Position numbers and translations under genes: made by a program. From a bacterium (GTDB lineage Bacteria; Bacillota; Clostridia; Christensenellales; CAG-138), in NCBI GenBank assembly GCA_022778545.1, contig JALFDW010000041.1, positions 1,483-65,482 on the forward strand: a DNA stretch of 64,000 nt. The letters run 5' to 3'. The stretch's first letter is position 1; every line of letters begins with the position of its first letter. Below the pieces are notes generated by a model, which saw only the letters and a program-made list of their open reading frames with translations, did no database searches and was not told the origin of the DNA. Positions 2,268 through 64,000 of this stretch are shown one piece after another.

Positions 2268-2302
2268 GAATGCGAGAATATCCTTTCAAAATGAAATCCG
2301 AC

Positions 2303-2623: not shown

Positions 2624-2626
2624 GGG

Positions 2627-3220: not shown

Positions 3221-3249
3221 TCCAATTTTTATAGCGGTTCGATGCGGAT

Positions 3250-3278
3250 ATTATCGCTTAAAACATGCGCTAAAGCAA
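3250..3278 (-). promoter_or_regulatory. Candidate sigma-70-type promoter for xpt
   Basis: The minus strand reads TTGCTT-N17-GATAAT (-35 at 3278-3273, -10 at 3255-3250), about 30 nt upstream of the xpt start. Confidence 0.4.
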
Positions 3279-3446
3279 GGCTTTTTGGGAAAAATCTTTT
3301 TTCGGGGAATGCAAAAAAATATAGGTTGAAAGCTTCACAGCAAATTCAAAATCATATCCCAGTTTCGTCAAGACAATAATAGGGAAATGCGGTATACTGT
3401 TTCCAACAAAATGAGAACATTAGTTCCGAATGAGGAGGGTTGATAT

Positions 3447-6038: not shown

Positions 6039-6076
6039 TATATTATATACAATTTGGAAAATCTGGAAGAAAATGC

Positions 6077-6110
6077 GAAGAGGCTACCCAAACGGGCGGC
6101 CTCTTCATTT
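6077..6110 (+). terminator. Hairpin terminator after clpB
   Basis: GAAGAGGC (6077-6084) pairs with GCCTCTTC (6099-6106), followed by ATTT. Confidence 0.45.
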
Positions 6111-6278
6111 GACAGGAAGTAACTGCGAAGGGAAAAAGCGTCAGCGGGATTTTCACTGAAAATCTGCCGGATATTGCAACAAAATAATTGCCAAATCAGG
6201 TCAATCATATATAATATTGAGCAGACAGAAAACGGCATATTTGGCCGAAATGACATTGATAAAGCAAGGAGAAAACAA

Positions 6279-51225: not shown

Positions 51226-52932
51226 TTAATCAATGATGAACTGGGTGATCCGGCTGCCGCCGTTCACCATCGGGCGCACCATTTCGTCCTGGTCGATGGC
51301 GCAGTCGATCACATAGCCGTGGTTCCATTCCATGGCCTCTTTGATAGCGGCCTCAAGCTCCTGCACGTTCGATACGCGCTTCCCGCGCAGACCGTAGGCT
51401 TCCGCGAGCTTTACGAAATCGGGCGCACGGTCGAGCGTGGTTTCGGAGTAGCGCTTGTCGTAGATCAGCGTCTGCCACTGGCGCACCATGCCGAGCGTTT
51501 TGTTGTTGAACACGAAGGTGATGACCGGGATGTCATAATACTGCTCCGTGGCAAGCTCGTTGCAGTTCATGCGGAAGCTGCCGTCCCCGGTGATGTGGAT
51601 GACGGTCTTTTCCGGGTTGCCCGCCTTCGCGCCGATGGCCGCGCCGAGGCCGAAGCCCATCGTGCCGAAGCCGCCGGAGGTCAGAAGCTGGCCGGGGTAA
51701 TCGAAGTGGAAGTGCTGGATGGCCCACATCTGGTGCTGCCCTACATCCGTGGCGACCATGGTGTCCATCGGCATGAGCCGCGCGATGGCGTCCGTGATCT
51801 GCTTGGGGGTCAGGGTGCTTCCGCCTTCGTCGTATTCCGTTTCCGTCTTGAAGGAGAAAACGTAATCCTTCCACGGGGTGTGATCCATCGGCTCAAGCTC
51901 GTCGAGCAGCATTTGCAGCACGCGCTTCGCATCGCCGATGATGTGGTGGTCGGTCTGCACGTTTTTGTTGATCTCCGAGCGGTCGATGTCGATCTGCACG
52001 ATTTTGGCCTGGCTCGCAAAGCTTGCCGGGTCAAGCGCCAAGCGGTCGGAGAAGCGGCAGCCCACGGCGATGAGCAGATCACAGCTGTCGCAGGCCATGT
52101 TGGAGGCCTGGGAGCCGTGCATGCCGATCATGCCCGTGGTGAGCGGGTTGCGCCCCTTGAAGCCGCCGCCGCCCATGAGGGTCACGGCAACGGGCGCGTC
52201 GATGCGCTCCGCAAATTCCAGAAACTCGCGGTCCGCCCGGCTGCGCACCACGCCGCCGCCGCAGATGAGGAGGGGCTTTTGGGAAGCGCGGATCATTTCG
52301 ACCAGCTTGTGCACGTCATGCTGATCCGGCTCCGGTGCGCGCAGGTCATGCGAAGCGCGCTTGATGAGCGCGCCGAGCCGCCCTTCAGAAGCATGCGCTT
52401 CCCGGGGCAGGGGGGTGAATTCCGCCATTTGCGCCGTTGCGTTTTTCACGATGTCGATGAGCACCGGCCCCGGCCTGCCGCCGCGGGCGATGGCGAACGC
52501 TTCGCGCAAGATGTCCGCAAGCTTTGCGGCGTCGCGCACCATGTAGTTGCACTTGGTGATGGGCATGGTGATGCCCGTGATGTCAACTTCCTGGAAGGAG
52601 TCCTTGCCCACGAGGTTTTCCGCCACGTTGCAGGTGATGAACACCACAGGGGAAGAATCCATGTAGGCCGTGGCGATGCCCGTGGTAAGGTTGGTGCACC
52701 CCGGGCCGGAGGTGGCAAAGCACACGCCCACTTTGCCGGTGGAACGGGCATAGCCGTCCGCCGCGTGGGAAGCGCCCTGCTCGTGCGCGGTCAGGATGTG
52801 CCGGATCTTGCCGCGGTAGCGGTAAAGCTCATCATAAACATTCAGAATGGTGCCGCCGGGGTAGCCGAAAATGGTATCGACGCCCTGTTCGAGCAGGCAT
52901 TCCATCAGAATTTTTGCGCCTGTCATCTGCAT
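51226..52932 (-). CDS. ilvB: Acetolactate synthase large (catalytic) subunit
   Basis: MQMTGAKILMECLLEQGVDTIFGYPGG.... The ThDP motif is GDGSFRMNCNELAT. An upstream in-frame Met lacks an RBS. Confidence 0.95.
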   Translation of the reverse strand: MQMTGAKILMECLLEQGVDTIFGYPGGTILNVYDELYRYRGKIRHILTAHEQGASHAADGYARSTGKVGVCFATSGPGCTNLTTGIATAYMDSSPVVFITCNVAENLVGKDSFQEVDITGITMPITKCNYMVRDAAKLADILREAFAIARGGRPGPVLIDIVKNATAQMAEFTPLPREAHASEGRLGALIKRASHDLRAPEPDQHDVHKLVEMIRASQKPLLICGGGVVRSRADREFLEFAERIDAPVAVTLMGGGGFKGRNPLTTGMIGMHGSQASNMACDSCDLLIAVGCRFSDRLALDPASFASQAKIVQIDIDRSEINKNVQTDHHIIGDAKRVLQMLLDELEPMDHTPWKDYVFSFKTETEYDEGGSTLTPKQITDAIARLMPMDTMVATDVGQHQMWAIQHFHFDYPGQLLTSGGFGTMGFGLGAAIGAKAGNPEKTVIHITGDGSFRMNCNELATEQYYDIPVITFVFNNKTLGMVRQWQTLIYDKRYSETTLDRAPDFVKLAEAYGLRGKRVSNVQELEAAIKEAMEWNHGYVIDCAIDQDEMVRPMVNGGSRITQFIID

Positions 52933-52999
52933 GTATAAAAAATCCTCCAAAACCCGCCTGCCGCCGCGCTCCACGGCGCGAAACGGGATGTTATTCTTT

Positions 53000-53285
53000 A
53001 AAAAAACCCTGAAGCCGAATTGGCTTCAGGGACGAAAGTTCGCGGTACCACCCTGATTATCGCATCCCAATATGCCTGGGAAACAAACGATCACTCATGT
53101 TCAAGGCTCTAACAAGCCTTTAGCCTGTAACGGGGCGGCCGTAACGCCTTACTGCTTCAGGTTGGGGCGTTCTACTCGGGAAGGAGACTGCACAGTATCT
53201 TCCGGACCGGCTTGCAGCAAAACGCCGGCTCTCTGAACCGTTTGATACGGGCATAATTCCGTCTGCGTATTATTATTCAGCATTG
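53000..53285 (-). promoter_or_regulatory. T-box riboswitch leader of the ilv-leu operon (specifier tentatively CUC, Leu)
   Basis: All reads are on the minus strand. The AG bulge is TCAGAGAG and the distal loop is GCTGCAA. The 3' K-turn half is CGAGTA. The T-box motif is AATCAGGGTGGTACCGCG (53058-53041). The terminator CCCTGAAGCC/GGCTTCAGGG is followed by TTTTTTT (53031-53000). CTC at 53186-53184 precedes the basal stem but is followed by C rather than the usual purine. Confidence 0.85.
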
Positions 53286-53291
53286 CCTGCA

Positions 53292-53320
53292 ATACTACCA
53301 TAGAAACCATGCTTTGTCAA
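53292..53320 (-). promoter_or_regulatory. Promoter of the ilv-leu T-box leader
   Basis: The minus strand reads TTGACA-N17-TAGTAT, with TGG immediately upstream of the -10. Confidence 0.65.
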
Positions 53321-53458: not shown

Positions 53459-53692
53459 ATGAAAATCAGGGATATCAACGAACCCAAGCGTTTTTTTGAA
53501 GCGGTGAATGCCTGCCGCGGCCACGTTGAGCTGCTCACCAGCGAGGGCGACCGGCTCAACCTGAAATCCACGCTTTGCCAATACATCGCGCTTACGCAGA
53601 TGTTTCAGGATGGGCGTGTGGAGGGCGTCGAACTGAGCCTGAGCGACCCTGAGGATTTCAAACTGCTCATGGAGTTTCTTGTGACAGAATAA
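53459..53692 (+). CDS. Small hypothetical protein, possibly HPr-fold-like but without the active-site His motif
   Basis: 77 aa, with the RBS AGGAGGG 9 nt upstream and its own terminator. ...HVELLTSEGDRLNLKSTL...VELSLSDPEDFKLLMEFL loosely resembles the C-terminal two-thirds of HPr. This is a weak call. Confidence 0.5.
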   Translation: MKIRDINEPKRFFEAVNACRGHVELLTSEGDRLNLKSTLCQYIALTQMFQDGRVEGVELSLSDPEDFKLLMEFLVTE

Positions 53693-53705
53693 GAAAAGCA
53701 TGCTT

Positions 53706-53731
53706 CCGCCGCCGCTCTGCGGCGGTTTTTT
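53706..53731 (+). terminator. Rho-independent terminator
   Basis: CCGCCGC pairs with GCGGCGG, followed by TTTTTT. Confidence 0.75.
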
Positions 53732-53861
53732 GTATCGCCGAAACGGCAATGGCGCTTTGGCTTATTGAGGATTATCGGAATTCATGATAAGCTAAAATAT
53801 ATATCTGTAATCATTTATGTCTGCTCTGATTTATAACCGGTGAGCTGTGCGGAGGAAAGCA

Positions 53862-54680
53862 ATGGCTACAAAAACTGGGAATAATGGGATTATTTTGTTC
53901 CCTGACTTTCAGGCGCTGAAAGATGAAGTCGAAAGAATGAAAACCGAGCTCTCCATGCTCCTGTCGGAAAGAGATGAGCTTCAGTTTGTCGTGGCTAAAA
54001 ACATAAATGCCCGGTATATGCTTGAACTGGGAAGCCTGGAATATAAAGCATATAAAGCACAGTGCGCGGCGCTGCGGCTGAAACGAAAAATCGAGCTGAT
54101 TCAAGCGCTGAAGAACAGGCAGGCGCCTGTTGTTATGGCAAATGTTGAGGAGACGCTCGATGCCGAGTTTGCAGCGTATCAGCAGAAGCTCGAAGAGCAA
54201 ATGGAAAAGATGAACGAGGCGATAGAAAGAAGCCAGTGCAGGGAACTGTCTTCCGAGGAAAACAGGGAATTTAAGAAGCTTTACCGGGAGGTGGTAAAGC
54301 TTCTCCACCCGGATTTGAACCCCGATGCATCAGAAGCACAGATCAAACTTTTTGAAAATGCTGTGCAGGCATACAGGAGCGGCGACCTTGGCACCTTGAG
54401 AATGATCCATGAAATGATTGCAGGGCAGCAGTCGATGGATGATGCCGGTCAGGACACATGGAGCATTCTTCGTGAACAACGCGAGGAATTGGCCGGGATG
54501 ATCGCGGCTGTTCGGGAAAGCATTGCAAGAATTAAGGCGGAATATCCGTTTACCGTTTTAGAAATATTGAATGATTCAGAGAAGTTGTCAGAGAGAAGAA
54601 AAGAACTGGAATATATAATGGATTACTATAATGAACTGATCCAATTCTATGCAGCAAAACTGCAGGAAACCTTGAGGTAG
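53862..54680 (+). CDS. J-domain (DnaJ-like, HPD motif) coiled-coil protein
   Basis: ATG is 6 nt after GGAGG. FKKLYREVVKLLHPDLNPDASEAQIKLFENAVQAYRSGD matches J-domain helix II-HPD-helix III, with HPD at 54306-54314. Heptad-rich sequence flanks it. Confidence 0.7.
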   Translation: MATKTGNNGIILFPDFQALKDEVERMKTELSMLLSERDELQFVVAKNINARYMLELGSLEYKAYKAQCAALRLKRKIELIQALKNRQAPVVMANVEETLDAEFAAYQQKLEEQMEKMNEAIERSQCRELSSEENREFKKLYREVVKLLHPDLNPDASEAQIKLFENAVQAYRSGDLGTLRMIHEMIAGQQSMDDAGQDTWSILREQREELAGMIAAVRESIARIKAEYPFTVLEILNDSEKLSERRKELEYIMDYYNELIQFYAAKLQETLR

Positions 54681-54684
54681 GGCT

Positions 54685-55088
54685 ATGAGCGATATCATTA
54701 AAAATCTGATGGGAAAGGCGGCATAATCGGCTTTTTTCACAGCCGGAACGGTAGCCTTACGATTCCTCAGCCTTTTGAAAGAGATATTTTTCTGTTCGAT
54801 ACGCATGTTGCAGGCACGACGCATATTGCAGGGATTGAGGAATTGGAGCCTCAGTTGAAAATTGATGAAAGGCTGAACTTTTTCAGGGAACCGGACAACC
54901 CTTACGATGAGCAGGCGATCGTGATTAAAACGGAAAACGGCGTGAAAATCGGTTATGTTCCGCAATCGGACAATGTCATCTTTGCCCGCTTGATGGATGC
55001 AGGGAAACTGGTGTTTGGCCGCATATCTCACAAAGATAAAATTGGCAATTGGATCAAGATCGACATTAAAATCTTTCTGCACGAATAA
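54685..55088 (+). pseudogene. HIRAN-domain gene interrupted by a frame change (frameshifted pseudogene, sequencing indel, or -1 recoding)
   Basis: ATG at 54685 (RBS GAGG) opens a 13-codon frame that ends at TAA 54724. The HIRAN domain (FLFDTHVAGTTHIAGIEEL...REPDNPYDEQAIVIKTENGVKIGYVP) is open in the -1 frame from 54702 to 55088. The heptamer G_GGA_AAG lies at 54711-54717. Confidence 0.6.
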
Positions 55089-55533: not shown

Positions 55534-56400
55534 TTATCTGCAGAGCCGCTTATCAGCCCGATAGATGAGCCTGGATACCTGCGCGCTGATCTGGTTTTCA
55601 TCGCCGGTGTCAAGCTTGAGCGATTCATCGGTGATCGCTTTGAACGACAACGGCTTGCGGATTTCATCGGCCTGGATGCCGAACTTGTCTGCAACAGACA
55701 TCAGGGCTTTGGCATATGCCGTGGATGCCCCATATTCGGCAAGCATCCTGGCGATGGCTGCAGGCTTCATTGCAAGATGTTTTGCGCAAAGCCTGGCAAG
55801 CACCTCTGCCGGCCTGTTGGCGAGCAGAGAGATTTCCCTGATGATCTCATCCTTCTTTACGAGGTAAAGCTCGTTTACTGTCTCCTTTGCGATGACTTCA
55901 TCTTCGGGCGTGTTCGGATCGGCGATGAAATCCTGAATCTCGGAGCTGTTTTCGCCGGATGCGTCTGCGCCCTTCACCTTATCCTGAAGGCTCACAACGG
56001 CGACACCGGCTGGAGGGAGCTTCCTCAACTGATCATATACACAGTTGTTAATGGTACGATATACATAAAACACCTGTTTCTCAAGAGGCTGCGCAAGGAT
56101 ATGGTCCATCTTGCTGAAAACATGGGCCAGAATGTCTCCGCGGATGTCGTTGAGATCGAATCCCCGGGAAACAAGAGTGCGGATTTTCTCGGCATTCCCT
56201 TCAACAATCTCGCTTTTGGAATTGCGGTGCGTCTTGCTCGCAAGGGCATAGTGGTTGATGAAATCCTGAACGGCGTACCACAAATCCGCACAAAGCGCTT
56301 CATTGCTGGGCGCATTGAGCTCTTCTTTGGAAGTGATGCTGTGCTGATTAATGATTGAAAGGACAGTCGCGAATCTGCTATAATATTTATTAATATTCAT
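55534..56400 (-). CDS. Divergent sigma-70-family-like protein (region 2 and region 4 similarity)
   Basis: 288 aa. DIRGDILAHVFSKMDHI...VFYVYRTINNCVYDQLRK resembles sigma region 2. The C-terminal ISAQVSRLIYRADKRL resembles the region 4.2 recognition helix. It is divergently transcribed from the cluster to its right. Confidence 0.45.
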   Translation of the reverse strand: MNINKYYSRFATVLSIINQHSITSKEELNAPSNEALCADLWYAVQDFINHYALASKTHRNSKSEIVEGNAEKIRTLVSRGFDLNDIRGDILAHVFSKMDHILAQPLEKQVFYVYRTINNCVYDQLRKLPPAGVAVVSLQDKVKGADASGENSSEIQDFIADPNTPEDEVIAKETVNELYLVKKDEIIREISLLANRPAEVLARLCAKHLAMKPAAIARMLAEYGASTAYAKALMSVADKFGIQADEIRKPLSFKAITDESLKLDTGDENQISAQVSRLIYRADKRLCR

Positions 56401-56496
56401 GGTTGAGCTCTCCTCTCAATTATGATCGAGGGAGTCTCAAACATGGTCGGATGCTTGTCCTGCCCTCTGTTTAAAATCTTAGAGGACAGAACTGAC

Positions 56497-56559
56497 TTGC
56501 CTTTTGCATCGGCAATTGACTTTACCTTACTTGCCTTGCTTTTACCTTGATTGTACCTT
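56497..56559 (+). repeat. Phased direct heptamer repeats T[TG][AG]CCTT upstream of the winged-helix gene (candidate operator)
   Basis: TTGCCTT at 56497, TTACCTT at 56522, TTGCCTT at 56531, TTACCTT at 56542, GTACCTT at 56553. The last four are spaced 9, 11 and 11 bp apart. Confidence 0.55.
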
Positions 56560-56596
56560 ACCGGGTCTCGCTCTGCAGGGGAAAGGATTTGTGTAA

Positions 56597-57292
56597 ATGA
56601 GTTGGATTTCAAAGCTGAAAGACAGGAAATATTACATAGACTTCGATTCCGGGTGTGTCTATGAAAATGATACTGTCGTCGCAGAGATCACATCACCTAC
56701 ACATATCAATATTCTTCTTTATTTTGCGGATCATCCCGAAATGTGGCTGAAGAAGGACGGCATCATCAGCAATTGCTGGCCCGATACAGCAGACGCAGAG
56801 TATGTTTCGGACGGAACTTTTTATAAACAAATACACGGCGTCACGCACATTCACATTAAAGTGGGCGAAAGTATTGAATCAAGGCGTGGCATGGGTTATA
56901 AATACCACGGATTACGAAAAGAAGAAATAACGGATGATCCAAAGAGGGAAACTGCCGAAAAACGCCTTTGTATTCCGCAAGGCGGAAAGAAAGCAAGCGA
57001 TGAGCCCTCCTTAGCCAGAAACGATGATAATGTCATTAAACTTGCTTCTCTGCTGGTTCATAGAAACGGCCGGGAGCATCCTAAAATAGATGAAGAATTG
57101 GAGCTTGAAATCCGCTATATCATAGAGCTTCTGGAACAAGGCCTGAGTGAGGATTTTGAAGAAATCTGTGAACAAGCCTGGGAGGATTTGAGCTTAATGC
57201 AAAAAGCTCTGCGGATTTTCAAGGCATATGAGAACCTGACGGACAGGTCTCGAAATATGTCACCGGATGACACGAACACCAGATTACAATAG
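56597..57292 (+). CDS. OmpR/PhoB-type winged-helix DNA-binding protein (no receiver domain), acidic C-terminal half
   Basis: The N-terminal 105 aa fit the trans_reg_C pattern: AEITSPTHINILLYFADHPEMWLKKDGIISNCWP...VSDGTFYKQIHGV...IESRRGMGYKYHG. Confidence 0.6.
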   Translation: MSWISKLKDRKYYIDFDSGCVYENDTVVAEITSPTHINILLYFADHPEMWLKKDGIISNCWPDTADAEYVSDGTFYKQIHGVTHIHIKVGESIESRRGMGYKYHGLRKEEITDDPKRETAEKRLCIPQGGKKASDEPSLARNDDNVIKLASLLVHRNGREHPKIDEELELEIRYIIELLEQGLSEDFEEICEQAWEDLSLMQKALRIFKAYENLTDRSRNMSPDDTNTRLQ

Positions 57293-57304
57293 GAGGCCAG
57301 GTAA

Positions 57305-59068
57305 ATGGCGGAAAACATGAATCTTGAGGGCAAGGAAAGGCTGTTTAAGGAGTTCTCTCATTTTTCTGTCGGCGAGAAGAACCCCTCCAAGATTTTCACG
57401 CACAGGCAAAGAGGAAAGTATGTTGGTGGAGTTCCCCTTGCATACGATGCGGAACGCGGCCTGATCGCCATAGATTCATCGGACACACATACTTTGGTGT
57501 GGGGGTCAACCGGCTCGCTCAAAACCAGATGCGTCATTGAGCCGGCAGTCAAAATCATCGGCAAATCCGGGGAGAGCATGATCATCAATGACCCAAAGGC
57601 CGAGATCCATAACCGCTGTGCGGCGGAGCTGAAAGACGAAGGATATAACATTATCGTTATTAACATTCGCGACCCGGAATTTGGCAACTCCTGGAATCCT
57701 TTGGCGATTCCGTACAGATTCTATCTTTCCGGGGATATTGACAGGGCTGCTGAATTCGCAAACGATGTGGCCCACAATCTCATGACGGAGGAACGCTCAA
57801 CAAAAGATCCATTTTGGGATTACAGCGCCTCCGACTGCCTGTTCGGCCTGATCCTTTTCCTGTTCAGATATGCGAAGGATCATAATTTGGATGAGTCTGT
57901 GGTGAATATGAGCAGCCTCATGAAATTGAGGCAGCAGTTATTCAAGACGAATACCGGTGCATTCAAGCCGCAGGGTTCTCTTCTTTGGAAATATGCGTCG
58001 GAAGATGAACTGGTTGAAGCGAGCCTGAGCGGATCCGTTTATGCCCCGAATGATACCCGGAATTCGATTTTATCCACCTTTGACCAGAAGATGCGGACCT
58101 TTACGATTCGCCCGTCTCTGCTGGATATGCTATCCAATAACGATATCGATATTGGAGAGATCGGGGAAGGAAAATGCGCTGTTTTTCTCATTATTCCTGA
58201 TGAAAAAAACACCTATAATAATCTGGTAAGCCTTTTTATCAAGCAGGCGTATGAGTACCTTATTTATAAGGCATCCTCGAACGATGATCTCAAGCTGAAG
58301 CACAGGGTGAATTTTGTGCTGGATGAGTTCGCATCCCTTCCCCCTATTTCCTCCATGTCAACCTTGATTTCAGCCGCACGATCCCGCGATATCAGGTTTA
58401 TCCTTGCCGTTCAAGGCAAACACCAGCTGATTAAGAGATATGGCGATGAAGCGGAAACGATCAAAAGCAACTGCGTTAACTGGATCTACCTTACCAGCCG
58501 GGAATACGACCTGCTGAAGGAGATTTCAGACCTTTGCGGCGAGCAGCGCAACCGCACACCGAACTTGTCGGTTTATGACCTGCAGCACTTCAGCAAAGAA
58601 AAATGCGAGGCGCTTGTGTTATGCGGCAGATTGAAACCCGCCAAGGTGAACCTTCTGGATATTGACAGGTTTGGCGACAAAGAGTACACGATCCTTGAAT
58701 TTGCCCGCCTCCCGAGAAAACCCAGGCAAACTACCAACTTTGCGTTGTCGGAAGAGATCAAACACCGGCTTGCCCCGGTCCTGAGCGACAGGCCGGTCGA
58801 CGCGGAAAGCAGGAACCCGTATATCCCCCCTGTTTCGCGAAAGCCTGTGCCGCATGATCCGCCAGCTGTTGTTTCAAAAGTCATTGAAACCTCTGTTGCT
58901 GGCGCAAAGAAGAAAAGCGTCAATGAAGTTTTGCAGCTCAACCTGGAGGCAATGGGCATCCGCTCTCAGGAGGATCTTGACGGCCTCATTCGTCAAACCA
59001 ACAAAAGAATAGCCGATCTTGAAACGGAAAAAGCGGCTTTGGACCCGGACGGCGGCGACAAGAAATAG
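57305..59068 (+). CDS. VirD4/TraG-family type IV coupling protein-like ATPase, no N-terminal membrane anchor, atypical Walker A
   Basis: Walker A-like GSTGSLKT (57503-57526). INDPKAE, NSWNPL and Walker B VNFVLDEFASL...RSRDIRFILAVQGKHQLIKRYG match T4CP signatures. No hydrophobic N-terminal segments. The C-terminal ~110 aa are low-complexity. Confidence 0.85.
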   Translation: MAENMNLEGKERLFKEFSHFSVGEKNPSKIFTHRQRGKYVGGVPLAYDAERGLIAIDSSDTHTLVWGSTGSLKTRCVIEPAVKIIGKSGESMIINDPKAEIHNRCAAELKDEGYNIIVINIRDPEFGNSWNPLAIPYRFYLSGDIDRAAEFANDVAHNLMTEERSTKDPFWDYSASDCLFGLILFLFRYAKDHNLDESVVNMSSLMKLRQQLFKTNTGAFKPQGSLLWKYASEDELVEASLSGSVYAPNDTRNSILSTFDQKMRTFTIRPSLLDMLSNNDIDIGEIGEGKCAVFLIIPDEKNTYNNLVSLFIKQAYEYLIYKASSNDDLKLKHRVNFVLDEFASLPPISSMSTLISAARSRDIRFILAVQGKHQLIKRYGDEAETIKSNCVNWIYLTSREYDLLKEISDLCGEQRNRTPNLSVYDLQHFSKEKCEALVLCGRLKPAKVNLLDIDRFGDKEYTILEFARLPRKPRQTTNFALSEEIKHRLAPVLSDRPVDAESRNPYIPPVSRKPVPHDPPAVVSKVIETSVAGAKKKSVNEVLQLNLEAMGIRSQEDLDGLIRQTNKRIADLETEKAALDPDGGDKK

Positions 59069-59082
59069 CAGGAGGTACGCAA

Positions 59083-60132
59083 ATGGCCAAGAAAGTTACC
59101 ATAACCGATTATGAATCCCCAAACACGGAGGAAACAAAAGAAGCCGGGAAAAAGAGCTCCGCAATGCTTTCCGTTAAGCAGGCGGCAAACATCTGTCAGG
59201 GGTACATCTTTGAGATCAAACGGGCCGAAAGGTACAACGAAGATAACCCTGTGGCCCGTGAATCGCTGTATGAAACAGTGGCGGAACTCACCGGCCAGCA
59301 AACGCAGGTGGGTAATTCCGATCAGTTTCACAACTTCGCAGCAACTTTGGGCGGAAACGGGTTCGACAACCTGGCATGTGATGTGCTTGACTGCGGCCTG
59401 GCCCGGTTCCCAATGAATGTGGATCTCCTTGCGGACTATCTGATTTACGGGATCGATTGCGAAAGGTTGGATCAATGCGCTGCACATTTTGCGACGCTTG
59501 AGTCCATTGAGCAGTCCGAATGGACATGGCGATGCTTCGCGTTCGGAATCGCCTATATGAACAGGCTTCGGGATTGCTTTGCCACCACGGCTGAAGAACG
59601 CAATCGCTATAAGAAAAAGGCTGCCGAGCTGGCAAGAGCATACAAGAGGCATCTTCCTTATGAGGAAGGGGGCTATAGAGAGACCGCAAAGCTTATGGCA
59701 AAGAAGCCGGATGCCATGCTGAAACTGCTCAACGATGCCCTGTCAAATGAACTGTTGGGCTCTTGCCCGACCTGTGCATTCGAAAAGGCGGAACTTCTGT
59801 TTAAACAGAAAAAGTATGAAGAAGCGCATGAAGCGATTGACCGCAGCCTTGAAGATTCCATCAACCAGACCCAAGGTGGTGTCAAGGAGAACTATCTCCT
59901 CTTTTTGAGGGGTCTGTGCGATTATGCGCTCCTGCTGCAAGGCGTCCGTGCCGGAACCCCCATCAAAGAAGAGAGCGTTCTGGGTATTTATGCTGACTTT
60001 AACAAAGCCCTGCGTGAGCTTGACGAAAACTACAGGGCAAAAATAAGGATAAGAACGCAGGATCTTGTTGAGGGCACAAAGGTTCAGGTGCCCGATGATT
60101 TGGAAAGGTTGTTGGAGCTGATAGAATTCTGA
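59083..60132 (+). CDS. Hypothetical alpha-helical repeat (TPR-like) protein
   Basis: 349 aa, predicted all-helical with TPR-like stretches (e.g. FEKAELLFKQKKYEEAHEAIDRSLE). The gene is tightly spaced after the T4CP-like gene. Confidence 0.45.
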   Translation: MAKKVTITDYESPNTEETKEAGKKSSAMLSVKQAANICQGYIFEIKRAERYNEDNPVARESLYETVAELTGQQTQVGNSDQFHNFAATLGGNGFDNLACDVLDCGLARFPMNVDLLADYLIYGIDCERLDQCAAHFATLESIEQSEWTWRCFAFGIAYMNRLRDCFATTAEERNRYKKKAAELARAYKRHLPYEEGGYRETAKLMAKKPDAMLKLLNDALSNELLGSCPTCAFEKAELLFKQKKYEEAHEAIDRSLEDSINQTQGGVKENYLLFLRGLCDYALLLQGVRAGTPIKEESVLGIYADFNKALRELDENYRAKIRIRTQDLVEGTKVQVPDDLERLLELIEF

Positions 60133-60215
60133 TAGAATAAAGATCTGCATACAAAGATACTGCGGATCTGTGAGAAGGGGAATCCGTTTTTTGCGGTTTT
60201 TACGTGGAGGCGTAT

Positions 60216-60674
60216 ATGGCTGATAGGAAGAACGATCAAAATTTCAATGAGGAGGAGCAGAATAAGAGGATCGGCGAAATCCCGAAAGCCGCCCCGTTTG
60301 CTTCGCTGAATAAAATACTGGAGGAGAGCCCCGAATTTAAGAACATTTTTGATTTGGCCGCGAACGTTTACGATGACGACTTATCTGCGGAAGAAATGGT
60401 CGAAGTCGAATGTGTTGAAATTGATGGCAATAACTATTTTGCTGCCAAAAGAATCGAAATTGCCGGGACCACCTACCTGTGCCTTGTAAATGAGAACGAT
60501 GTTATGGACTATATGATCCAAAAAGTTGTGATAGAAGACGGCGAAGAGTATATAACCGGATTGGATTCCGACAGGGAATTCGATCTTGTCCAGGCATATA
60601 TTCAGCGTGACTTTTTAATGGCGCTGAAAGAAAAGCTCCAGAAAGCTGACGAGGGCACACCCGGCGATCAGTAA
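60216..60674 (+). CDS. DUF1292-like small acidic protein
   Basis: ATG follows GTGGAGG. VEVECVEIDGNNYFAAKRIEIAGTTYLCLVNEND...IEDGEEYITGLDSDREFDLVQAYI resembles the DUF1292/UPF0473 pattern. Confidence 0.45.
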   Translation: MADRKNDQNFNEEEQNKRIGEIPKAAPFASLNKILEESPEFKNIFDLAANVYDDDLSAEEMVEVECVEIDGNNYFAAKRIEIAGTTYLCLVNENDVMDYMIQKVVIEDGEEYITGLDSDREFDLVQAYIQRDFLMALKEKLQKADEGTPGDQ

Positions 60675-60700
60675 CGGGCTTTGGCCTCGGGAACATCTTA

Positions 60701-60736
60701 GGACCTTAGATCAATGATCCGAGGTCCTCTTTTCTT
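60701..60736 (+). terminator. Rho-independent terminator
   Basis: GGACCTTAGATC pairs with GATCCGAGGTCC (one 2x2 internal mismatch), followed by TCTTTTCTT. Confidence 0.55.
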
Positions 60737-60875
60737 GTTGGATGAAGAGGCCAGCCGAAACGGCGCGGCTTTCCCAAAAATGCAAAAAAATATGGAAAGA
60801 AACGTGGAGATTTCCCGATTTGCCTCCGTATACAGAGACAGAACCGCAAAACAAAACACGAAAGGATATACGAAA

Positions 60876-61607
60876 ATGAGCAAATATGAATTCAAGGCAA
60901 CCAACCTGATCGCGGAGACCTTTGAAAAGCGCAGCGTCCGTTTTGATGTCAAAGATATGGGTGGGGACGAAGTGGTCTGTGCCGGTTTTTCGATCGACTG
61001 TGGCCCCAAAGTTATTATGCAGTTCATCTGCAGCGATAACGACAACGATGTGGCAGTACGGATCTTCGGCGTCATAACCAAAACGCCCAAAGAAAAACGC
61101 TCCCGTGTCATGGAAGCCTGCAACATTCTGAACCGCAAGGTCCGTTATGTGAAGTTCTATGTTGACGGTGACGGCGATATCAACGTTGAGTACGATTTTC
61201 CCGTGCATACGCCCGATGAAGGTGTCGGTGAGATTGCGTTTGAGATCTTCCTTCGCATGATGATGATCCTTGACTCTGAATACAGCATCTTTATGAAGGC
61301 TCTTTATACTGATGAAGAGCTCGCCAGGCTTCAGGATTATGGTATCCCCGAGAAGCTGGTGCAGAAGCTCCAGGAACTCCGGGAGAAGAGTGAGACTCGC
61401 AAGGCTGCTGCCGGCGAGGCAGGGGAGGAAGAGCCCGCCGTTGAGGATCATGATATCCATGAGGAACTGATGCAGAAGCTCCAGGAACTCCGGGAGAAGA
61501 TTGAGGCCCGCAAGGCTGCTGCCGGCGAGGCAGGGGAGGATGAGGATCCGGATGATTCCAATCTGGATACCGAGGAGGACGGCTCTCTTGAGGAGCTTCC
61601 CTTCTGA
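60876..61607 (+). CDS. YbjN-like (type III secretion chaperone-like fold) protein with a duplicated acidic C-terminal tail
   Basis: I prefer the ATG at 60876 because the longer ORF starts inside the upstream terminator. The core MSKYEFKATNLIAETFEKRSVRFDV...DNDVAVRIFGV...VKFYVDGDGDINVEYDF fits the YbjN pattern. The tail ends ...EEDGSLEELPF. Confidence 0.5.
   Translation: MSKYEFKATNLIAETFEKRSVRFDVKDMGGDEVVCAGFSIDCGPKVIMQFICSDNDNDVAVRIFGVITKTPKEKRSRVMEACNILNRKVRYVKFYVDGDGDINVEYDFPVHTPDEGVGEIAFEIFLRMMMILDSEYSIFMKALYTDEELARLQDYGIPEKLVQKLQELREKSETRKAAAGEAGEEEPAVEDHDIHEELMQKLQELREKIEARKAAAGEAGEDEDPDDSNLDTEEDGSLEELPF
61361..61540 (+). repeat. Two 69-bp direct repeats (66/69 identical), 111 bp apart, within the coding sequence
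   Basis: Both 61361-61429 and 61472-61540 read GCAGAAGCTCCAGGAACTCCGGGAGAAGA...CGCAAGGCTGCTGCCGGCGAGGCAGGGGAGGA. They encode QKLQELREK.E.RKAAAGEAGE twice. Confidence 0.85.
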
Positions 61608-61658
61608 ACGCGGGAATGTCATACCTGGGCCGATCATAAAACAGCCTCTGTATCGTCT

Positions 61659-61692
61659 GAAGAGGAGGGCTAAACAACCCTCTTCTTTTTTC
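61659..61692 (+). terminator. Rho-independent terminator
   Basis: GAAGAGG pairs with CCTCTTC, followed by TTTTTTC. Confidence 0.6.
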
Positions 61693-61825
61693 TTGGAAAT
61701 TTTCTCAACCCTTTGGAGATTCCATCATGCTGCCCGTATACAAAAAACAGAAAAACAAAAAAGGAACGGTTCCTGGCAGGAAATGCCGTGTGGTTCCGCA
61801 TACAGAGACGACAACGGCAGAAAGG

Positions 61826-62041
61826 ATGAGGAAAATGAAGGGCTTTGAAGACATCAGGTGCATTGGAAATGGGGCTCTCAAGGGACTGGTCATGGAAGAA
61901 TCTCCCAACTCGCTGCTGATTGCTGCGAGAAAGAAGATCTATGTCCCTGAAAAGAAGATCGTCCTTATGGATCAGATCACCGAACAGGAGGCCCTGTTCA
62001 TAAAAAGCGCTGCGAAACACAAAGGAGGTTTGATTGTATGA
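61826..62041 (+). CDS. Small hypothetical protein translationally coupled to ClpP
   Basis: ~70 aa (MRKMKGFEDIRCIGNGALKG...). The RBS AAAGGA lies upstream. Its stop overlaps the ClpP start (ATGA at 62038-62041). The start could instead be 61835. Confidence 0.45.
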   Translation: MRKMKGFEDIRCIGNGALKGLVMEESPNSLLIAARKKIYVPEKKIVLMDQITEQEALFIKSAAKHKGGLIV

Positions 62042-62628
62042 ATTATCTTATGAAGAAGGCCACCAACCTGAGCGGGCAGGACATGATGCTGACGCCGCTG
62101 GATATCGACTATGCTCACCGCACCATTCTTCTTACCGGTGAAATCGATGAGGATGTTGCAACGGTAGTAAATTCCGCTCTCAGGTGCCTTGCCAGGGATT
62201 CGGATGAGGATATCACCATCTACATTCAGAGCCCCGGAGGATCTGTTTCCGCCGGCCTCAGTATCCATGATACTGCAAAAGCACTGAAATGCGACATCGT
62301 TACAGTTGCCTGCGGCATGGCAGCAAGCATGGGAGCTTTCCTTCTGGCTGCTGCCGGGACAAAAGGGAAACGCTGGTGCCAGCCCAACGCTGAAGTGCTG
62401 ATCCATCAGCCGCTTGGCGGAACGACCGGCCAGGCAACGGACATCCGCATTCATGCAGAGCATATTCTCAATACCCGCATAAAGCTCAACCGCATTTTTG
62501 CCGAGTGTACCGGCCAGCCCTTCGATAAGGTCGAGAGCGATACCGAACGGGACTACATTATGAGTGCAGAGGAAGCGCTTAAATACGGGCTTGTCGACAA
62601 GGTCGGAGATCCTGTTTCCGAATGGTAA
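62038..62628 (+). CDS. clpP: ATP-dependent Clp protease proteolytic subunit (ClpP paralogue)
   Basis: 196 aa, collinear with canonical ClpP: ILLTGEIDEDVA...IYIQSPGGSVSAGLSIHD...GMAASMGAFLLAAG (Ser)...LIHQPLGG (His)...DTERDYIMSAEEALKYGLVD (Asp). Confidence 0.93.
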   Translation: MNYLMKKATNLSGQDMMLTPLDIDYAHRTILLTGEIDEDVATVVNSALRCLARDSDEDITIYIQSPGGSVSAGLSIHDTAKALKCDIVTVACGMAASMGAFLLAAAGTKGKRWCQPNAEVLIHQPLGGTTGQATDIRIHAEHILNTRIKLNRIFAECTGQPFDKVESDTERDYIMSAEEALKYGLVDKVGDPVSEW

Positions 62629-62653
62629 ACGAGGCTTTAAACGGAGGTTACAA

Positions 62654-63433
62654 ATGAAGCGTTGCGATATTACGAAACCAATCGGGCTTGACACGCTCTG
62701 CGCGGAGGTCGAGAGCACTTGCAGCAAGGCCCATATATTTAAGCGGTGCGGCCTGCGCCCGCAGCATTTGATCGTCCCTCTGGACCCCGGCTGCGGAAGA
62801 ACGACGTTCATGGAATATATGACCGATCAGTATAAAAAGGCGGGTGTTTTGGAGTTCACCAGCGGCCTGGATGACTATATCGAAGTCACTTTTGACGGCA
62901 CGCTTCCGCAGCTCAAACGGGTATTTGCCGCGATTGATTCCGCAGCTGTGTATACCAATGAATACTGCAACATCATTGGCATGGATATCAGCGGCATTGC
63001 CGCTCACCTCGGCGAAACTCAGCTCGCTGAGTTTATGAAAAACTGCAAGCGGGTTTGCGATCACGCCTGCGTCGTCTTCTTTGTTCATGCTGTACCGAAC
63101 AGAAACGAGGAAAAGCTTTTGGAGAAGCTGTGTGAAACTGTCGGCAGCGTCAAACGCCTCACGGTCGAACCTTACACGAAGGATGACATGTGCGCCCTGA
63201 TCATCAAGGCTGTTTTGGATCACGGCATCGAAATCCGGCATGAGGCAGCGTTCCAGTCGGAATTGTCGGATATGGTTTCCGCATGCTGCATATCCGACGT
63301 CAGGGAAGCGATCGCCGCAGCGGATACCATCGTCCATTTTGCCGATTTTTCAGGCTTTACGCCCGTTGTTGACGAGACCAGCCTGAAGTCTGTGATCGCA
63401 ATCCGGCATAATCAGGCCAGCATCATGATGTAG
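62654..63433 (+). CDS. SpoVK/CbbX-like AAA+ domain protein with degenerate Walker A and B (probable pseudo-ATPase)
   Basis: ATG is 7 nt after GGAGG. The order LIVPLDPGCGRTTFMEYM...AGVLEF...IIGMDISG...VVFFVHAVP...LTVEPYTKDDM parallels SpoVK/CbbX. The Walker A Lys is replaced by Arg (62786-62806) and the Walker B DE is replaced by DI. Confidence 0.55.
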   Translation: MKRCDITKPIGLDTLCAEVESTCSKAHIFKRCGLRPQHLIVPLDPGCGRTTFMEYMTDQYKKAGVLEFTSGLDDYIEVTFDGTLPQLKRVFAAIDSAAVYTNEYCNIIGMDISGIAAHLGETQLAEFMKNCKRVCDHACVVFFVHAVPNRNEEKLLEKLCETVGSVKRLTVEPYTKDDMCALIIKAVLDHGIEIRHEAAFQSELSDMVSACCISDVREAIAAADTIVHFADFSGFTPVVDETSLKSVIAIRHNQASIMM

Positions 63434-63449
63434 AGAGGAGCGGAGCAAA

Positions 63450-64000
63450 ATGAGCCGAAGTGAACGTTGGAATACCGCAGGCGAAATCAAGCGCAGGTTT
63501 CATGAAACCACAGACCCGATGAATGGTGCGGGCCCGGTCATATATGTTGAGAACGGCAGGAAGTACTCCGATGACAGCGAGTCGCACATCGCTGTAATTG
63601 GCCGCACCGGCAAGGGGAAAAGCCAATGCTGCAGCCTCCCGTTTATGAGGGAGATCTTCAGGAAGGGAGAAAGCCTTATCATGCTTGATCCCAAAGGGGA
63701 AGGTTACAGGAGAAACGCCTGTTATATTCCGGCTGAATATCAGGTTTTCTGCGTGGATTTCCGCAACCCGAGAAAAAGCCCCACAAAGTGGAATCTTTTC
63801 CGCTGCATCGAGAGATTGTTCCACTCCGAAGATCCGGACGACAAGGACATTGCAAGTTCAATGATCAGTGAGCTTTGGAAGGGGGTCTATCCCTACGATG
63901 GCCATTCAGAAAAGTTTTGGACGGATTCATCCATAAACTATGCCAAAGGTCTGACCTATGGTTTGCTTGAAACTGCATCCGAAGAGCAGACCAACCTTGA
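63450..64000 (+). CDS. Second VirD4/TraG-family T4CP-like ATPase (N-terminal part; 3' end outside the window), no membrane anchor
   Basis: Open from ATG 63450 (RBS GAGAGGAG) to the window end. Canonical Walker A GRTGKGKS (63600-63623), then MLDPKGEGY and PTKWNLF (the T4CP DPKGE / WNP motifs). No hydrophobic N-terminus. Confidence 0.8.
   Translation, partial: MSRSERWNTAGEIKRRFHETTDPMNGAGPVIYVENGRKYSDDSESHIAVIGRTGKGKSQCCSLPFMREIFRKGESLIMLDPKGEGYRRNACYIPAEYQVFCVDFRNPRKSPTKWNLFRCIERLFHSEDPDDKDIASSMISELWKGVYPYDGHSEKFWTDSSINYAKGLTYGLLETASEEQTNL

Follow-up and report, generated by a model that had tools for sequence, protein, structure and literature searches.

A conserved gene module joining VirD4-type and EccC-like ATPases to an accessory ClpP in a putative integrative-element family of gut Clostridia

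Introduction

Conjugation of the mycobacterial plasmid pRAW requires a reduced set of genes resembling those of type IV secretion (T4S) together with a type VII secretion (T7S) system that includes EccC (PMC4173767). Here we describe a gene module from a bacterium of the clostridial lineage CAG-138, found at the right end of a 64,000-nucleotide stretch of DNA (GenBank assembly GCA_022778545.1, contig JALFDW010000041.1, positions 1,483 to 65,482 of the forward strand), the whole of which we call the window. As on pRAW, a mobile element joins VirD4-like and EccC-like ATPases and does without several of the "obligatory" parts of a T4S system (T4SS) (PMC4173767). The module also encodes a ClpP paralogue, a 259-aa AAA+-fold protein with a disabled P-loop and a ubiquitin-like E1/E2-like/JAB set, and we tentatively read it as a machine with which the element moves itself or its proteins. 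It differs from pRAW in phylum and cell envelope and in that pRAW has a TraA relaxase, VirB4, a TcpC/VirB8-like protein and a complete ESX locus, none of which is seen in the module.

Type IV coupling proteins (T4CPs), among them the VirD4-like CD1115 family and TrwB, TraG and TraD, share the domains T4SS-DNA_transf, TrwB_AAD_bind and TraG-D_C, and the same domains occur in both coupling-protein-like ATPases of the module, here T4CP1 and T4CP2. The gene for the CD1115-family T4CP of Bacillus thuringiensis pBMB64 has MobP3 relaxase, TrbL, PrgI and VirB4-like genes as its neighbours, whereas the T4CP-like genes of the module have no relaxase, VirB4, VirB6 or PrgI beside them. Unlike known T4CPs, those of the module form sets of two paralogues, or sometimes three, that depart from the Walker A and Walker B consensus in complementary ways.

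A second likeness is to T7S, since the FtsK-class ATPase of the module is nearest to EccC, EccC5 and YukB, and chaperone-like proteins and proteases are encoded with it. EccA combines a TPR (tetratricopeptide repeat) region with a CbbX-like AAA+ fold; in the module, a TPR-like protein and a CbbX-fold AAA+ protein are separate genes. In contrast to T7S, no membrane core and no WXG100 or LXG protein was detected in the module, its ATPase has neither transmembrane (TM) segments nor an FHA domain, its AAA+ protein is predicted to be catalytically dead, and its commonest layout carries an 847-aa ATPase instead of the EccC-like one. A link between T7S and ubiquitin-like systems has been discussed (PMC1779556).

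The remaining comparisons concern tagging and proteolysis. Bacterial E1/E2/JAB operons include types 6a to 6e of Iyer, Burroughs and Aravind and the Cap2/Cap3 genes of CBASS (cyclic-oligonucleotide-based anti-phage signalling systems); Bil and Bub systems are further examples. The module resembles these operons in its adjoining ThiF-type E1 and Prok-JAB genes and differs in that the set is embedded among ~30 genes with ATPases and proteases. As with ClpP and the unfoldases ClpX, ClpA and ClpC, the module pairs a ClpP whose catalytic triad is intact with an AAA+-fold protein encoded beside it, but the partner here is one 259-aa domain whose P-loop is disabled. CmdTAC, a system of three genes, uses the host ClpP. 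The module shares with it the presence of chaperone-like and nuclease-like proteins together with ClpP; release of the CmdTAC toxin is gated by a chaperone and depends on ClpP (PMC11618068). TY-Chap chaperones, for their part, have been described in predicted immune systems (PMC9503650).

Results and discussion

A module that recurs on elements of gut Clostridia

From position 56597 to the end of the window runs a string of tightly packed genes, all in one direction. An earlier note, made from the letters of this stretch alone, had described these genes as a ClpP-centred accessory cluster and had listed them as a winged helix-turn-helix (wHTH) gene, T4CP1, a TPR-like, a DUF1292-like and a YbjN-like gene, a small open reading frame (ORF), clpP, a pseudo-AAA gene and T4CP2. 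All are present, as judged from ORFs and profile matches, so the genes of that cluster are real; the unit to which they belong, however, is far larger than the 7.6 kb then considered. The module comprises ~30 genes over ~30 kb, forms the backbone of an element as argued below, and has its left third in the window.

Related loci carry L numbers here. A genome scan with T4CP2 gave 13 loci, all in metagenome-assembled genomes (MAGs) of gut Clostridia (Lachnospiraceae, Oscillospiraceae, Ruminococcus) save one bin labelled Eggerthellaceae, and a metagenome scan with a profile of the 259-aa protein gave 19 further loci; a metagenome scan with the transglutaminase-like protein gave nothing. The genes for ClpP, the 259-aa protein and T4CP2 are adjacent in every related locus that has the 259-aa gene (47/47), which is always the middle one, and this trio is complete in all 30 loci with full flanks. 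Adjacency in all 47 loci suggests linkage beyond chance. Within 10 kb of the trio lie a transglutaminase-like gene (25/30), JAB and E2-like genes (24/30) and a large ATPase gene (23/30), several of the misses being due to truncation of the flanks, and an M50 or TM-HExxH protein comes next after the trio in 31 of 38 cases. Protein identity within the recurring gene set is 58-88%, and its hosts differ in GC content. The genes co-occur across genomes without T4SS genes, a question that the earlier note had raised.

The module has two main layouts. The commonest, ~29 kb in span, opens on a contig from IMG/VR with a divergent regulator, wHTH, T4CP1, TPR-like, DUF1292 and YbjN genes. Upstream (5') of its ClpP trio lie genes for the E1, a 210-aa protein, a 287-aa JAMM protein (motif HxHx7Sx2D in L022), a transglutaminase-like protein, a Band_7 protein, two membrane proteins, the 847-aa HerA/FtsK-class ATPase and a WHH DNase, and the WHH/Colicin-DNase gene overlaps the ATPase gene. 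The layout of this genome instead has the EccC-like ATPase with E2-like, JAB, E1, nuclease-like, DUF2625 and transglutaminase-like genes. The EccC-like block precedes the trio in L028 and L046 and follows it in this genome, indicating that the gene set was kept while the order of its blocks changed.

Evidence for mobility comes from the edges of the module. Copies are 92-95% identical in DNA, the similarity stops abruptly at the module edge, and the contexts differ. At the right end of L022 we found a LexA-like S24 protein, an HTH_17 protein and a tyrosine integrase followed by a host gene, at that of L046 a serine-recombinase fragment followed by host glf, aroK and mfd, and at that of L021 smpB; the recombinases are thus known from the L022 and L046 loci, not from the copy in this genome. 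The GC content of the module ranges from 0.455 to 0.575 across hosts and is ~0.49 in the window against ~0.60 around it. Variable, cargo-like parts include a restriction-modification (RM) pair with an ATPase gene, an ABC transporter, a citrate transporter and a clostripain gene with leucine-rich repeats (LRRs), and in this genome HIRAN and J-domain genes. By these comparisons, a family of integrative elements in gut Clostridia shares the module as its conserved backbone.

A DNA search of the region against plasmids gave no match, and a protein search with the 259-aa protein drew a blank both in 72,556 plasmids and in 50,697 phage records. In IMG/VR, the module was present on 1 of 2.9 million viral contigs (L053, UViG_3300029305_007709). 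By eye, L053 carries at 2200-7300, left of the module and on the opposite strand, ORFs for a 646-aa protein like a family-A DNA polymerase, a 199-aa DUF2815-like protein and a 418-aa DUF2800-like protein, and this phage-like segment is probably why the contig is filed as viral. We rejected the possibility that the module is a prophage: the phage-type replication genes lie outside it on the other strand, none occurs at the left junction of this genome, and L053 is the sole IMG/VR contig with the module. PHROGs gave matches for ClpP and the FtsK domain only.

The module past the end of the window

We read the continuation from contigs of up to 23.6 kb that encode an identical ClpP and from a near-identical 18.5-kb contig, L030, which covers the next ~14.8 kb past the window end. 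There, T4CP2 (611 aa) is followed by an M50 peptidase, a lipoprotein of 610 aa whose lipobox reads LSAC, a second YbjN, a 171-aa protein containing three TM segments and an FtsK-family ATPase of 1070 aa. Next come a 336-aa E2-like protein, Prok-JAB and the ThiF-type E1, then small helical proteins of 68 and 89 aa, a 252-aa protein, DUF2625, a transglutaminase-core protein and a 114-aa protein. The 1070-aa ATPase, encoded ~5 kb past the window end, matches EccCa at 7e-26 (91 bits against a cut-off of 509), the EccC structure PDB 4nh0 at 1.7e-24, EccC5 at 8e-14, YukB at 1e-5 and FtsK at ~2e-5, and also EssC. Scans of it showed a single clear P-loop domain and neither an FHA domain nor a TM segment; the gene for the 3-TM protein lies immediately upstream. 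The loose echo of T7S that had been noted in the window is therefore stronger than first stated, with an EccC/EssC-like ATPase so close by.

The E1 and JAB genes stand side by side, outside the window, and their products match ThiF at 2.4e-21 and Prok-JAB at 6.9e-12 (L030). They also match the model named "anti-phage 6A-MBL cap2_3" at 3e-18 and 1e-13, and Cap3 weakly. The 336-aa protein (L030 11530-12540) has four N-terminal repeats of the form IPKAIVSxDTVGDLINQxRGE and then a 170-aa domain, which matched no profile and has an HP...YLC pattern reminiscent of E2 (UBC) enzymes; this pattern is what suggests that the protein is a putative E2. In L025 (18106-19120), its two parts are separate genes. 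Hints of a ubiquitin-like protein come from weak UN_NPL4 and DUF2604 matches (~5e-4) in one layout only. Downstream of the E1, the 68-aa and 89-aa helical proteins gave no WXG100 match at E <= 0.05, and the 252-aa protein has a weak DNase_NucA_NucB match at its C-terminus, with the DUF2625 gene next to it.

The 847-aa ATPase of the commonest layout was considered as a possible VirB4. It matches VirB4 models at 3.8e-8 (31 bits against a cut-off of 590) and CedD and HerA models equally, and it weakly resembles DptH and defence HerA proteins. With weak matches spread equally over CedD, VirB4, HerA and TraD models, we rejected the VirB4 assignment.

Two VirD4-type ATPases with no TM segment found

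T4CP1 (57305..59068, + strand; 587 aa) has a nucleotide-binding domain of the VirD4/TraG/TrwB type, matching T4SS-DNA_transf at 5.9e-38, TraG-D_C at 1.6e-22 and TrwB_AAD_bind at 7.4e-19. It scores 260 bits with the NCBIfam VirD4-like CD1115 family, just above the cut-off of 250, and is ~30% identical to CD1115-family proteins of plasmids. A search of PDB with the single sequence gave no match, and a look-up of the exact sequence returned no record. The gene for T4CP2 is cut by the window end, which leaves the N-terminal 183 residues (63450..64000, + strand), and near-identical contigs supply the full length of 611 aa. T4CP2 matches T4SS-DNA_transf at 2.9e-29, TraG-D_C at 1.2e-18 and TrwB_AAD_bind at 1.7e-16; at full length, it scores 186 bits with the CD1115 model, under the cut-off of 250, and finds TrwB in PDB at E = 4.6e-6.

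The two proteins deviate from the Walker consensus in complementary and conserved ways, Walker A being altered in T4CP1 and Walker B in T4CP2. In T4CP1, the glycine preceding the lysine of Walker A is replaced (GSTGSLKT) and Walker B is LDEF, and its homologues are likewise non-canonical in Walker A (GSTGSLKT in L025; GASGSKKT in L028 and L032). T4CP2 and its homologues combine a canonical Walker A (GRTGKGKS) with a Walker B of LEEL. The earlier note was therefore right to call the first P-loop degenerate and the second canonical. Both proteins have a similar C-terminal coiled-coil motif.

It was also right to call both proteins anchor-less. No TM segment was found in either, as no 19-residue window attains a hydropathy of 1.6, and a start further upstream is ruled out, since both ORFs begin just past an upstream stop codon and cannot be extended. 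In an alignment, the CD1115-family protein of pBMB64 carries at its N-terminus ~100 additional residues, many of them hydrophobic, that are missing from T4CP1 and T4CP2. Some Gram-positive T4CPs have been reported without TM helices, so a missing anchor does not by itself rule out membership of the T4CPs.

The last ~60 residues of T4CP2 (..IARIISAATGESMESAARKLEHLPADLVFSTKSEAIKFAMDVIQAGGEATIKTS; L030 3400-3655) resemble a small domain of the ribosomal L7/L12 C-terminal, ClpS type and matched no model. This domain aligns in 4 of the 5 homologues compared, the L017 copy being truncated, and is absent from T4CP1 in the same alignment.

ClpP, its 68-aa neighbour and the 259-aa AAA+-fold protein

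The ClpP of the module (62038..62628, + strand; 196 aa) matches CLP_protease at 4.6e-63. Its catalytic Ser, His and Asp motifs (GMAASMG, IHQP and TERD) are retained in an alignment with B. subtilis and E. coli ClpP, and the claim that it is a genuine ClpP stands. It lacks ~15 residues near the N-terminus, corresponding to the ER..DIYSRLL region of housekeeping ClpP, and falls under every NCBIfam ClpP cut-off (215 against 249; TIGR00493, 204 against 308.6). With a phage head-maturation protease model it scores 80 bits, below the cut-off of 120. The protein is 72-88% identical in 30 of 30 related loci, and the 64-kb window has no second clpP copy. The scores below cut-off, the N-terminal gap and the location on a mobile island together suggest an accessory paralogue and not the housekeeping enzyme.

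Just upstream is a conserved small ORF (61727..62041, + strand) with a 68-aa core, a probable start at 61826 or 61835, and a stop that overlaps the clpP start (ATGA). Its C-terminus, ...KGG[L/I/W]IV, is kept in most of 38 distinct sequences taken upstream of ClpP. The family has 149 clusters, with no Pfam match or name among the 120 listed, and the AlphaFold2 model is of low confidence (mean predicted local distance difference test, pLDDT, 52). As ideas, the tail might dock on ClpP, or it might be a processed GG tag.

Downstream of clpP is the gene for the 259-aa protein (62654..63433, + strand), which has no Pfam or NCBIfam AAA match. The family comprises 142 clusters in 5.8 billion proteins; the 120 listed are all at least 48% identical, none has a Pfam domain, and the 2 with a source name are both "hypothetical protein". 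A profile search against PDB sequences gave only noise from ribosomal protein S20. Its AlphaFold2 model has a pLDDT of 90.2, and the top Foldseek match is CbbX (3syk; E = 4.4e-8, TM-score 0.55), followed by RuvB, RFC, FtsH and Vps4. From the confident model and these folds we conclude that the protein has an AAA+ fold. The P-loop is disabled in a conserved manner: across 32 aligned sequences, the Walker A lysine is replaced by an invariant arginine (Arg49, GxGRTT), and in Walker B D111 is kept, followed by Ile or Val, and the glutamate is missing. With Lys changed to Arg and the Walker B Glu missing, the protein is predicted to be unable to hydrolyse ATP in the usual manner. The earlier label of a SpoVK/CbbX-type pseudo-AAA protein is thus confirmed by the CbbX fold and the invariant arginine.

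The alignment also contains an invariant N-terminal motif, P-[I/V]-G-L, whose [I/V]GL recalls the IGL and IGF tripeptides with which partners dock on ClpP. This motif and the position of the gene, always between those for ClpP and T4CP2, suggest that the 259-aa protein may couple ClpP physically to T4CP2. The first hypothesis of the earlier note was that T4CP-like rings may feed or gate ClpP. A 289-aa version of this ORF with a GTG start (62564-63433), which shares 65 nt with the 3' end of clpP, was rejected as an artefact of the longest-ORF rule; homologues and the genes called on other contigs begin at the ATG at 62654, giving 259 aa.

Two side observations bear on ClpP. It has a weak NfeD1b_N match (4.8e-4), and the commonest layout includes a Band_7 (SPFH) protein (L022 3401-4498). 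SPFH proteins are classically paired with ClpP-like NfeD proteases, so a link of the module's ClpP to membrane microdomains is possible.

Searches for known systems

The Pfam-annotated loci (L001-L008, L022-L030) and further ORF scans contain no relaxase, VirB4, VirB6, VirB8 or PrgI family, no T7S membrane core, WXG100, LXG, capsid, portal or terminase family, and no EssA, EssB, EsaA, EccB, EccD, EccE or YukD family. PADLOC-DB 2.0 returned generic P-loop matches only (mad8, 1e-15 to 8.5e-6; SspH, 1e-9), and ClpP, the 259-aa protein, the TPR-like protein, M50 and the lipoprotein had no match in it. Full-text literature searches gave no description of this gene set. T4SS, T7S, known defence systems, prophages and classical integrative and conjugative elements (ICEs) each fail at least one defining feature. 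The single domain families are known; it is their assembly that is new. The proposal that the cluster fits no described conjugation, phage or defence architecture and represents an undescribed system is upheld.

What the module may do

The case for any function starts from the gene content, the folds and motifs, the linkage of the trio and the recurrence of the set with different recombinases and flanks, all of which are observed. From these we infer every interaction, the nature of the substrate and the purpose of the module in what follows. We tentatively favour the reading that the module is the backbone transfer or translocation machine of the element itself, in a new integrative-element family. 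Its most likely use would be cell-to-cell transfer of the element, as DNA and accompanying proteins, by a non-canonical route.

We propose that the LexA-like S24 repressor at one end of the element and the wHTH and divergent regulator at the head would hold the long operon silent until induction; an activator at the head and an SOS-type repressor beside an integrase resemble the control of ICEs and prophages. On induction, the two soluble VirD4-type ATPases, T4CP1 and T4CP2, would serve as cytoplasmic receptor and motor, assisted by the TPR-like, DUF1292 and YbjN-type proteins as peptide-binding chaperones. They would pass substrates to a membrane-proximal EccC-type ATPase, which is itself TM-less and encoded right after the 3-TM protein. 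A proteolysis arm consisting of ClpP, its translationally coupled 68-aa partner and the presumably inactive AAA+-fold adaptor may process or clear components, and the M50 or HExxH membrane metalloprotease and the transglutaminase-like cysteine protease may extend this arm. Finally, the E1/E2-like/JAB set could mark or unmark targets.

We favour transfer because the module stays conserved where the cargo and recombinases of the elements vary, and because its motors belong to the types that take up and drive substrates during conjugation and T7S. The same conclusion is suggested by the chaperone-fold proteins, the candidate membrane tether for the EccC-like ATPase, the lipoprotein and the membrane proteases, and by the precedent of pRAW, whose conjugation depends on T4S-like and T7S parts alike (PMC4173767).

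Several points weigh against this reading, and the missing relaxase and channel are its chief weakness. The annotated loci and scans yielded no relaxase or other recognisable DNA-processing enzyme for transfer, no VirB4, VirB6, VirB8 or cell-wall hydrolase with a signal peptide, and no membrane channel that we could name. The element of this genome is known up to the transglutaminase-like and 114-aa genes, its right end being beyond view, and all relatives are MAG or metagenome contigs, hence without a transfer phenotype. The transglutaminase-like proteins look cytosolic. The E1/E2/JAB set, the nuclease-like proteins (WHH; weak NucA/NucB) and the kinase-phosphatase variants are more typical of conflict systems, and so are the HIRAN, NUDIX and KptA-type neighbours. 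Lastly, we know of no conjugation system in which a dedicated ClpP has a role.

If the module does form one machine, it would be an unprecedented union of conjugation-type and type VII-type motors, a private ClpP with a pseudo-AAA+ protein, membrane and cysteine proteases and an E1/E2/JAB set, all passed on as one unit by elements that travel between abundant Clostridia of the human gut. A transfer function would mean a conjugation-like route invisible to ICE and T4SS detectors, which rely on VirB4 and relaxase, and would matter when gene flow in the gut is estimated. We speculate, though we think it rather unlikely, that the module represents a new "T4CP-EccC-ClpP" class of translocation system. 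Such a class would move the element and/or effectors between Gram-positive cells without VirB4, VirB6 or relaxase, with ubiquitin-like tagging and ClpP, aided by the inactive AAA+ adaptor and the GG-LIV tail protein, controlling assembly or the choice of substrate. If true, it would explain the spread of common islands of gut Clostridia and add a type of secretion or conjugation system.

A close, if likewise doubtful, alternative is that the element carries an intracellular conflict system, anti-phage or anti-plasmid, of the abortive-infection type. ATPases of the HerA/FtsK class (T4CP-like, EccC-like or 847-aa) would sense or translocate invading DNA or protein, the YbjN chaperones and the E1/E2/JAB set would fix a threshold, ClpP and the inactive AAA+ adaptor would remove an inhibitor or immunity protein, and nuclease effectors would be unleashed (WHH in one layout; the NucA/NucB-like 252-aa protein and DUF2625 in the other). 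The similarity of E1 and JAB to Cap2/Cap3-type anti-phage models speaks for such a system, as do the WHH/Colicin-DNase gene that overlaps the gene of the 847-aa ATPase, the weak DNase_NucA_NucB match of the 252-aa protein with DUF2625 next to it, the weak likeness of the 847-aa ATPase to DptH and defence HerA, the kinase-phosphatase variant, and the RM genes that adjoin the module. Precedents are the TY-Chap chaperones in predicted immune systems (PMC9503650) and the chaperone-gated, ClpP-dependent toxin release of CmdTAC (PMC11618068). However, the PADLOC matches are to generic P-loops only, and the module is the conserved part of these elements and classical defence genes the variable part, the reverse of what is usual for defence cargo. 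Some 30 co-directional genes with an activator and a divergent regulator would also be unusually large and tightly regulated for defence, and the membrane proteins, the lipoprotein and the secretion-type chaperones would be left unexplained. Were it a conflict system, ubiquitin-like tagging would be linked to a dedicated bacterial protease, a long-sought tag-and-degrade analogue in immunity. The 259-aa and 68-aa families (~140-150 clusters each, unannotated) are precise handles in either case, and the question is directly testable in cultured carriers.

Less probable still, and in our judgement unlikely, is a divergent type VII-like system that exports nuclease toxins to competitors with the EccC-like ATPase as its motor. 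Here the TPR-like and CbbX-fold proteins would be a split analogue of EccA, the YbjN proteins chaperones of the EspG type, and the proteases a replacement for mycosin; the small helical proteins (68 and 89 aa) and the 252-aa protein would form the toxin complex and DUF2625 the immunity protein. This reading takes up the best matches of the 1070-aa ATPase (EccC, EccC5, YukB/EssC), the CbbX-type fold of the 259-aa protein, the YbjN/TY-Chap1 fold family, the lipoprotein and small TM proteins, and the run of 68-aa, 89-aa, 252-aa (with a nuclease-like C-terminus) and DUF2625 genes right after the E1. It is weakened by the lack of any WXG100, LXG, EssA/B, EsaA, EccB/D/E or YukD family in the loci searched and by the ATPase, which has one clear P-loop, no FHA domain and no TM segment and reaches 91 of the 509 bits at the EccCa cut-off. 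Moreover, the commonest layout swaps in the different 847-aa ATPase, the WHH gene has no obvious immunity partner, and two T4CP-like proteins would go unexplained.

A single system might not exist at all, and an accessory ClpP, decayed conjugative remnants and a ubiquitin-like defence operon might travel together by chance as a mosaic. The order of the blocks does vary between layouts, the M50, lipoprotein, Band_7 and kinase-phosphatase blocks are optional, and the altered Walker A of T4CP1 and the dead AAA+ protein can be read as decay. We consider a mosaic very unlikely because the departures from consensus are not random: Arg49 is invariant, and every T4CP1 homologue is altered at the same place in Walker A. 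In addition, the ORFs are intact, co-directional and tightly packed or overlapping, and the same set recurs despite reshuffling, in hosts of differing GC and at 58-88% protein identity.

Least probable by our estimate is that the module recruits substrates for a canonical T4SS located outside it, be it past the window end (the second hypothesis of the earlier note) or on a helper element, the element then being mobilisable and not self-transmissible: T4CP1 does score above the CD1115 VirD4-like cut-off, mobilisable elements with their own coupling protein are known, and the far right of this genome's element is beyond view, but no T4SS gene, including VirB4 and VirB6, and no relaxase, which a mobilisable element would need, was found in the ~14.8 kb past the window end (L030) or in the stretches that separate the module from host genes in L021, L022 and L046, T4CP1 is only ~30% identical to plasmid T4CPs that have relaxase and VirB4-like neighbours and an N-terminal segment, and the other ~25 conserved genes would be left unexplained.

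Genes at the head of the module

A gene for a 288-aa helical protein (55534..56400, - strand) heads the module and is transcribed divergently from the rest. Homologues occupy the same position in L025 (37.5% identity) and L032, and the three-way alignment has a mean column identity of 65%. The protein gave a SigW match at E = 0.007 only, nothing in Pfam, and no significant match in PDB with either the single sequence or a profile of the 3 homologues. The earlier description of this gene as sigma-like therefore lacks confirmation, and its position suggests that it encodes a regulator. Among sigma-70-like promoter matches in the region, the best one (TTGAAA-18-TATAAT, TG-extended at -10; 56355..56384, + strand) agrees with the consensus at 11 of 12 positions and lies upstream of the co-directional string; it is a match to consensus only.

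The first gene of the string encodes an OmpR-type wHTH DNA-binding protein (56597..57292, + strand; 231 aa) with a Trans_reg_C match at E = 1.2e-3, below the cut-off; the homologue in L025 matches PF00486. In relatives, the protein is 322-513 aa long, and its gene is always immediately 5' of T4CP1, as seen from the positions in L028 and L032. Next after T4CP1, always so across the related loci, comes the gene for the TPR-like helical-repeat protein (59083..60132, + strand; 349 aa). This gene is present as first listed, but support for its label is weak, namely a TPR_2 match at 8e-3 and, with a profile of 4 homologues, TPR and HAT proteins of PDB that are all below threshold. The DUF1292-like protein (60204..60674, + strand; 156 aa) matches PF06949 at E = 5e-3, and PF06949 is also the match of its homologue in L028.

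The YbjN/TY-Chap1-type gene (60714..61607, + strand), with a probable real start near 60876, encodes a protein that matches YbjN at 1e-9 and TY-Chap1 at 1.9e-6, families with a secretion-chaperone fold. The acidic repeat tail ascribed to it was found again: a 111-nt tandem duplication (61330-61544, 88% identity) encodes the repeated acidic segment (..KLQELREK..RKAAAGEAGE..) of the C-terminal tail. The protein ends in ...EELPF and its paralogue, encoded beyond the window upstream of the EccC-like gene, in ...EDAAF, endings that recall acidic C-terminal docking tails such as that of SSB.

Island border, left arm and variants

The AT-richer island recognised in the earlier note is real and begins farther left than was stated. 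GC content falls at 53,000 from ~0.60-0.63 to 0.45-0.52 and keeps this lower level as far as the window end, which places the start of the island ~3 kb to the left. Its left edge is at ~53.3 kb, and it continues past the window end. The outermost host-like gene, which the left end of the island adjoins, is an acetolactate-synthase-type (ilvB-like) ORF (51226-52974, - strand). Just upstream of its start is a strong terminator-like hairpin of 10 pairs followed by a T-run (53007-53031, - strand), and ~260 nt farther upstream a promoter-like site, TTGACA-17-TAGTAT with TG (53292-53320, - strand). Together these look like the leader or attenuator of the ilv gene, which would put the true border of the island near 53.33 kb. 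Rfam returned no family at the gathering score for 50-64 kb, the ilv leader region included. A tRNA scan of the whole window found no gene, and hence there is no tRNA attachment site within it.

Three genes form the left arm of the island: a 77-aa ORF from the ORF list (53459-53692, + strand), a gene for a 277-aa protein with a weak J-domain (53847-54680, + strand; DnaJ E = 9.5e-4, below the cut-off) and one for an 81-aa HIRAN-domain protein (54843-55088, + strand; HIRAN 1.7e-15). In tblastn maps none of the three (53459..55088) is present in related loci, and they are probably cargo.

Related loci add genes at other positions. In some elements, genes for a BRCT protein, a KptA/Tpt1-type (PTS_2-RNA) protein and one or two SprT-like metalloproteases lie between the TPR-like and YbjN genes (L031 3448-4245 and 4688-6771; L028 6829-8591); they are not in the window's copy and may be leading-region or counter-defence genes. 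A variant seen at L034 510-8276 and L044 1207-9034 carries, directly upstream of the small ORF and clpP, a fusion of a PP2C phosphatase with a VTT membrane domain and then a Ser/Thr kinase, followed by a third T4CP-like ATPase, which at 440 aa is short and comes nearest to F-type TraD models, and by genes for a 429-aa protein and a transglutaminase-like one. In a Lachnospiraceae MAG (L019 1006-5472), a gene just upstream of the ClpP trio encodes a 1488-aa clostripain (Peptidase_C11) with BspA-type LRR repeats, which could be either cargo or a candidate substrate.

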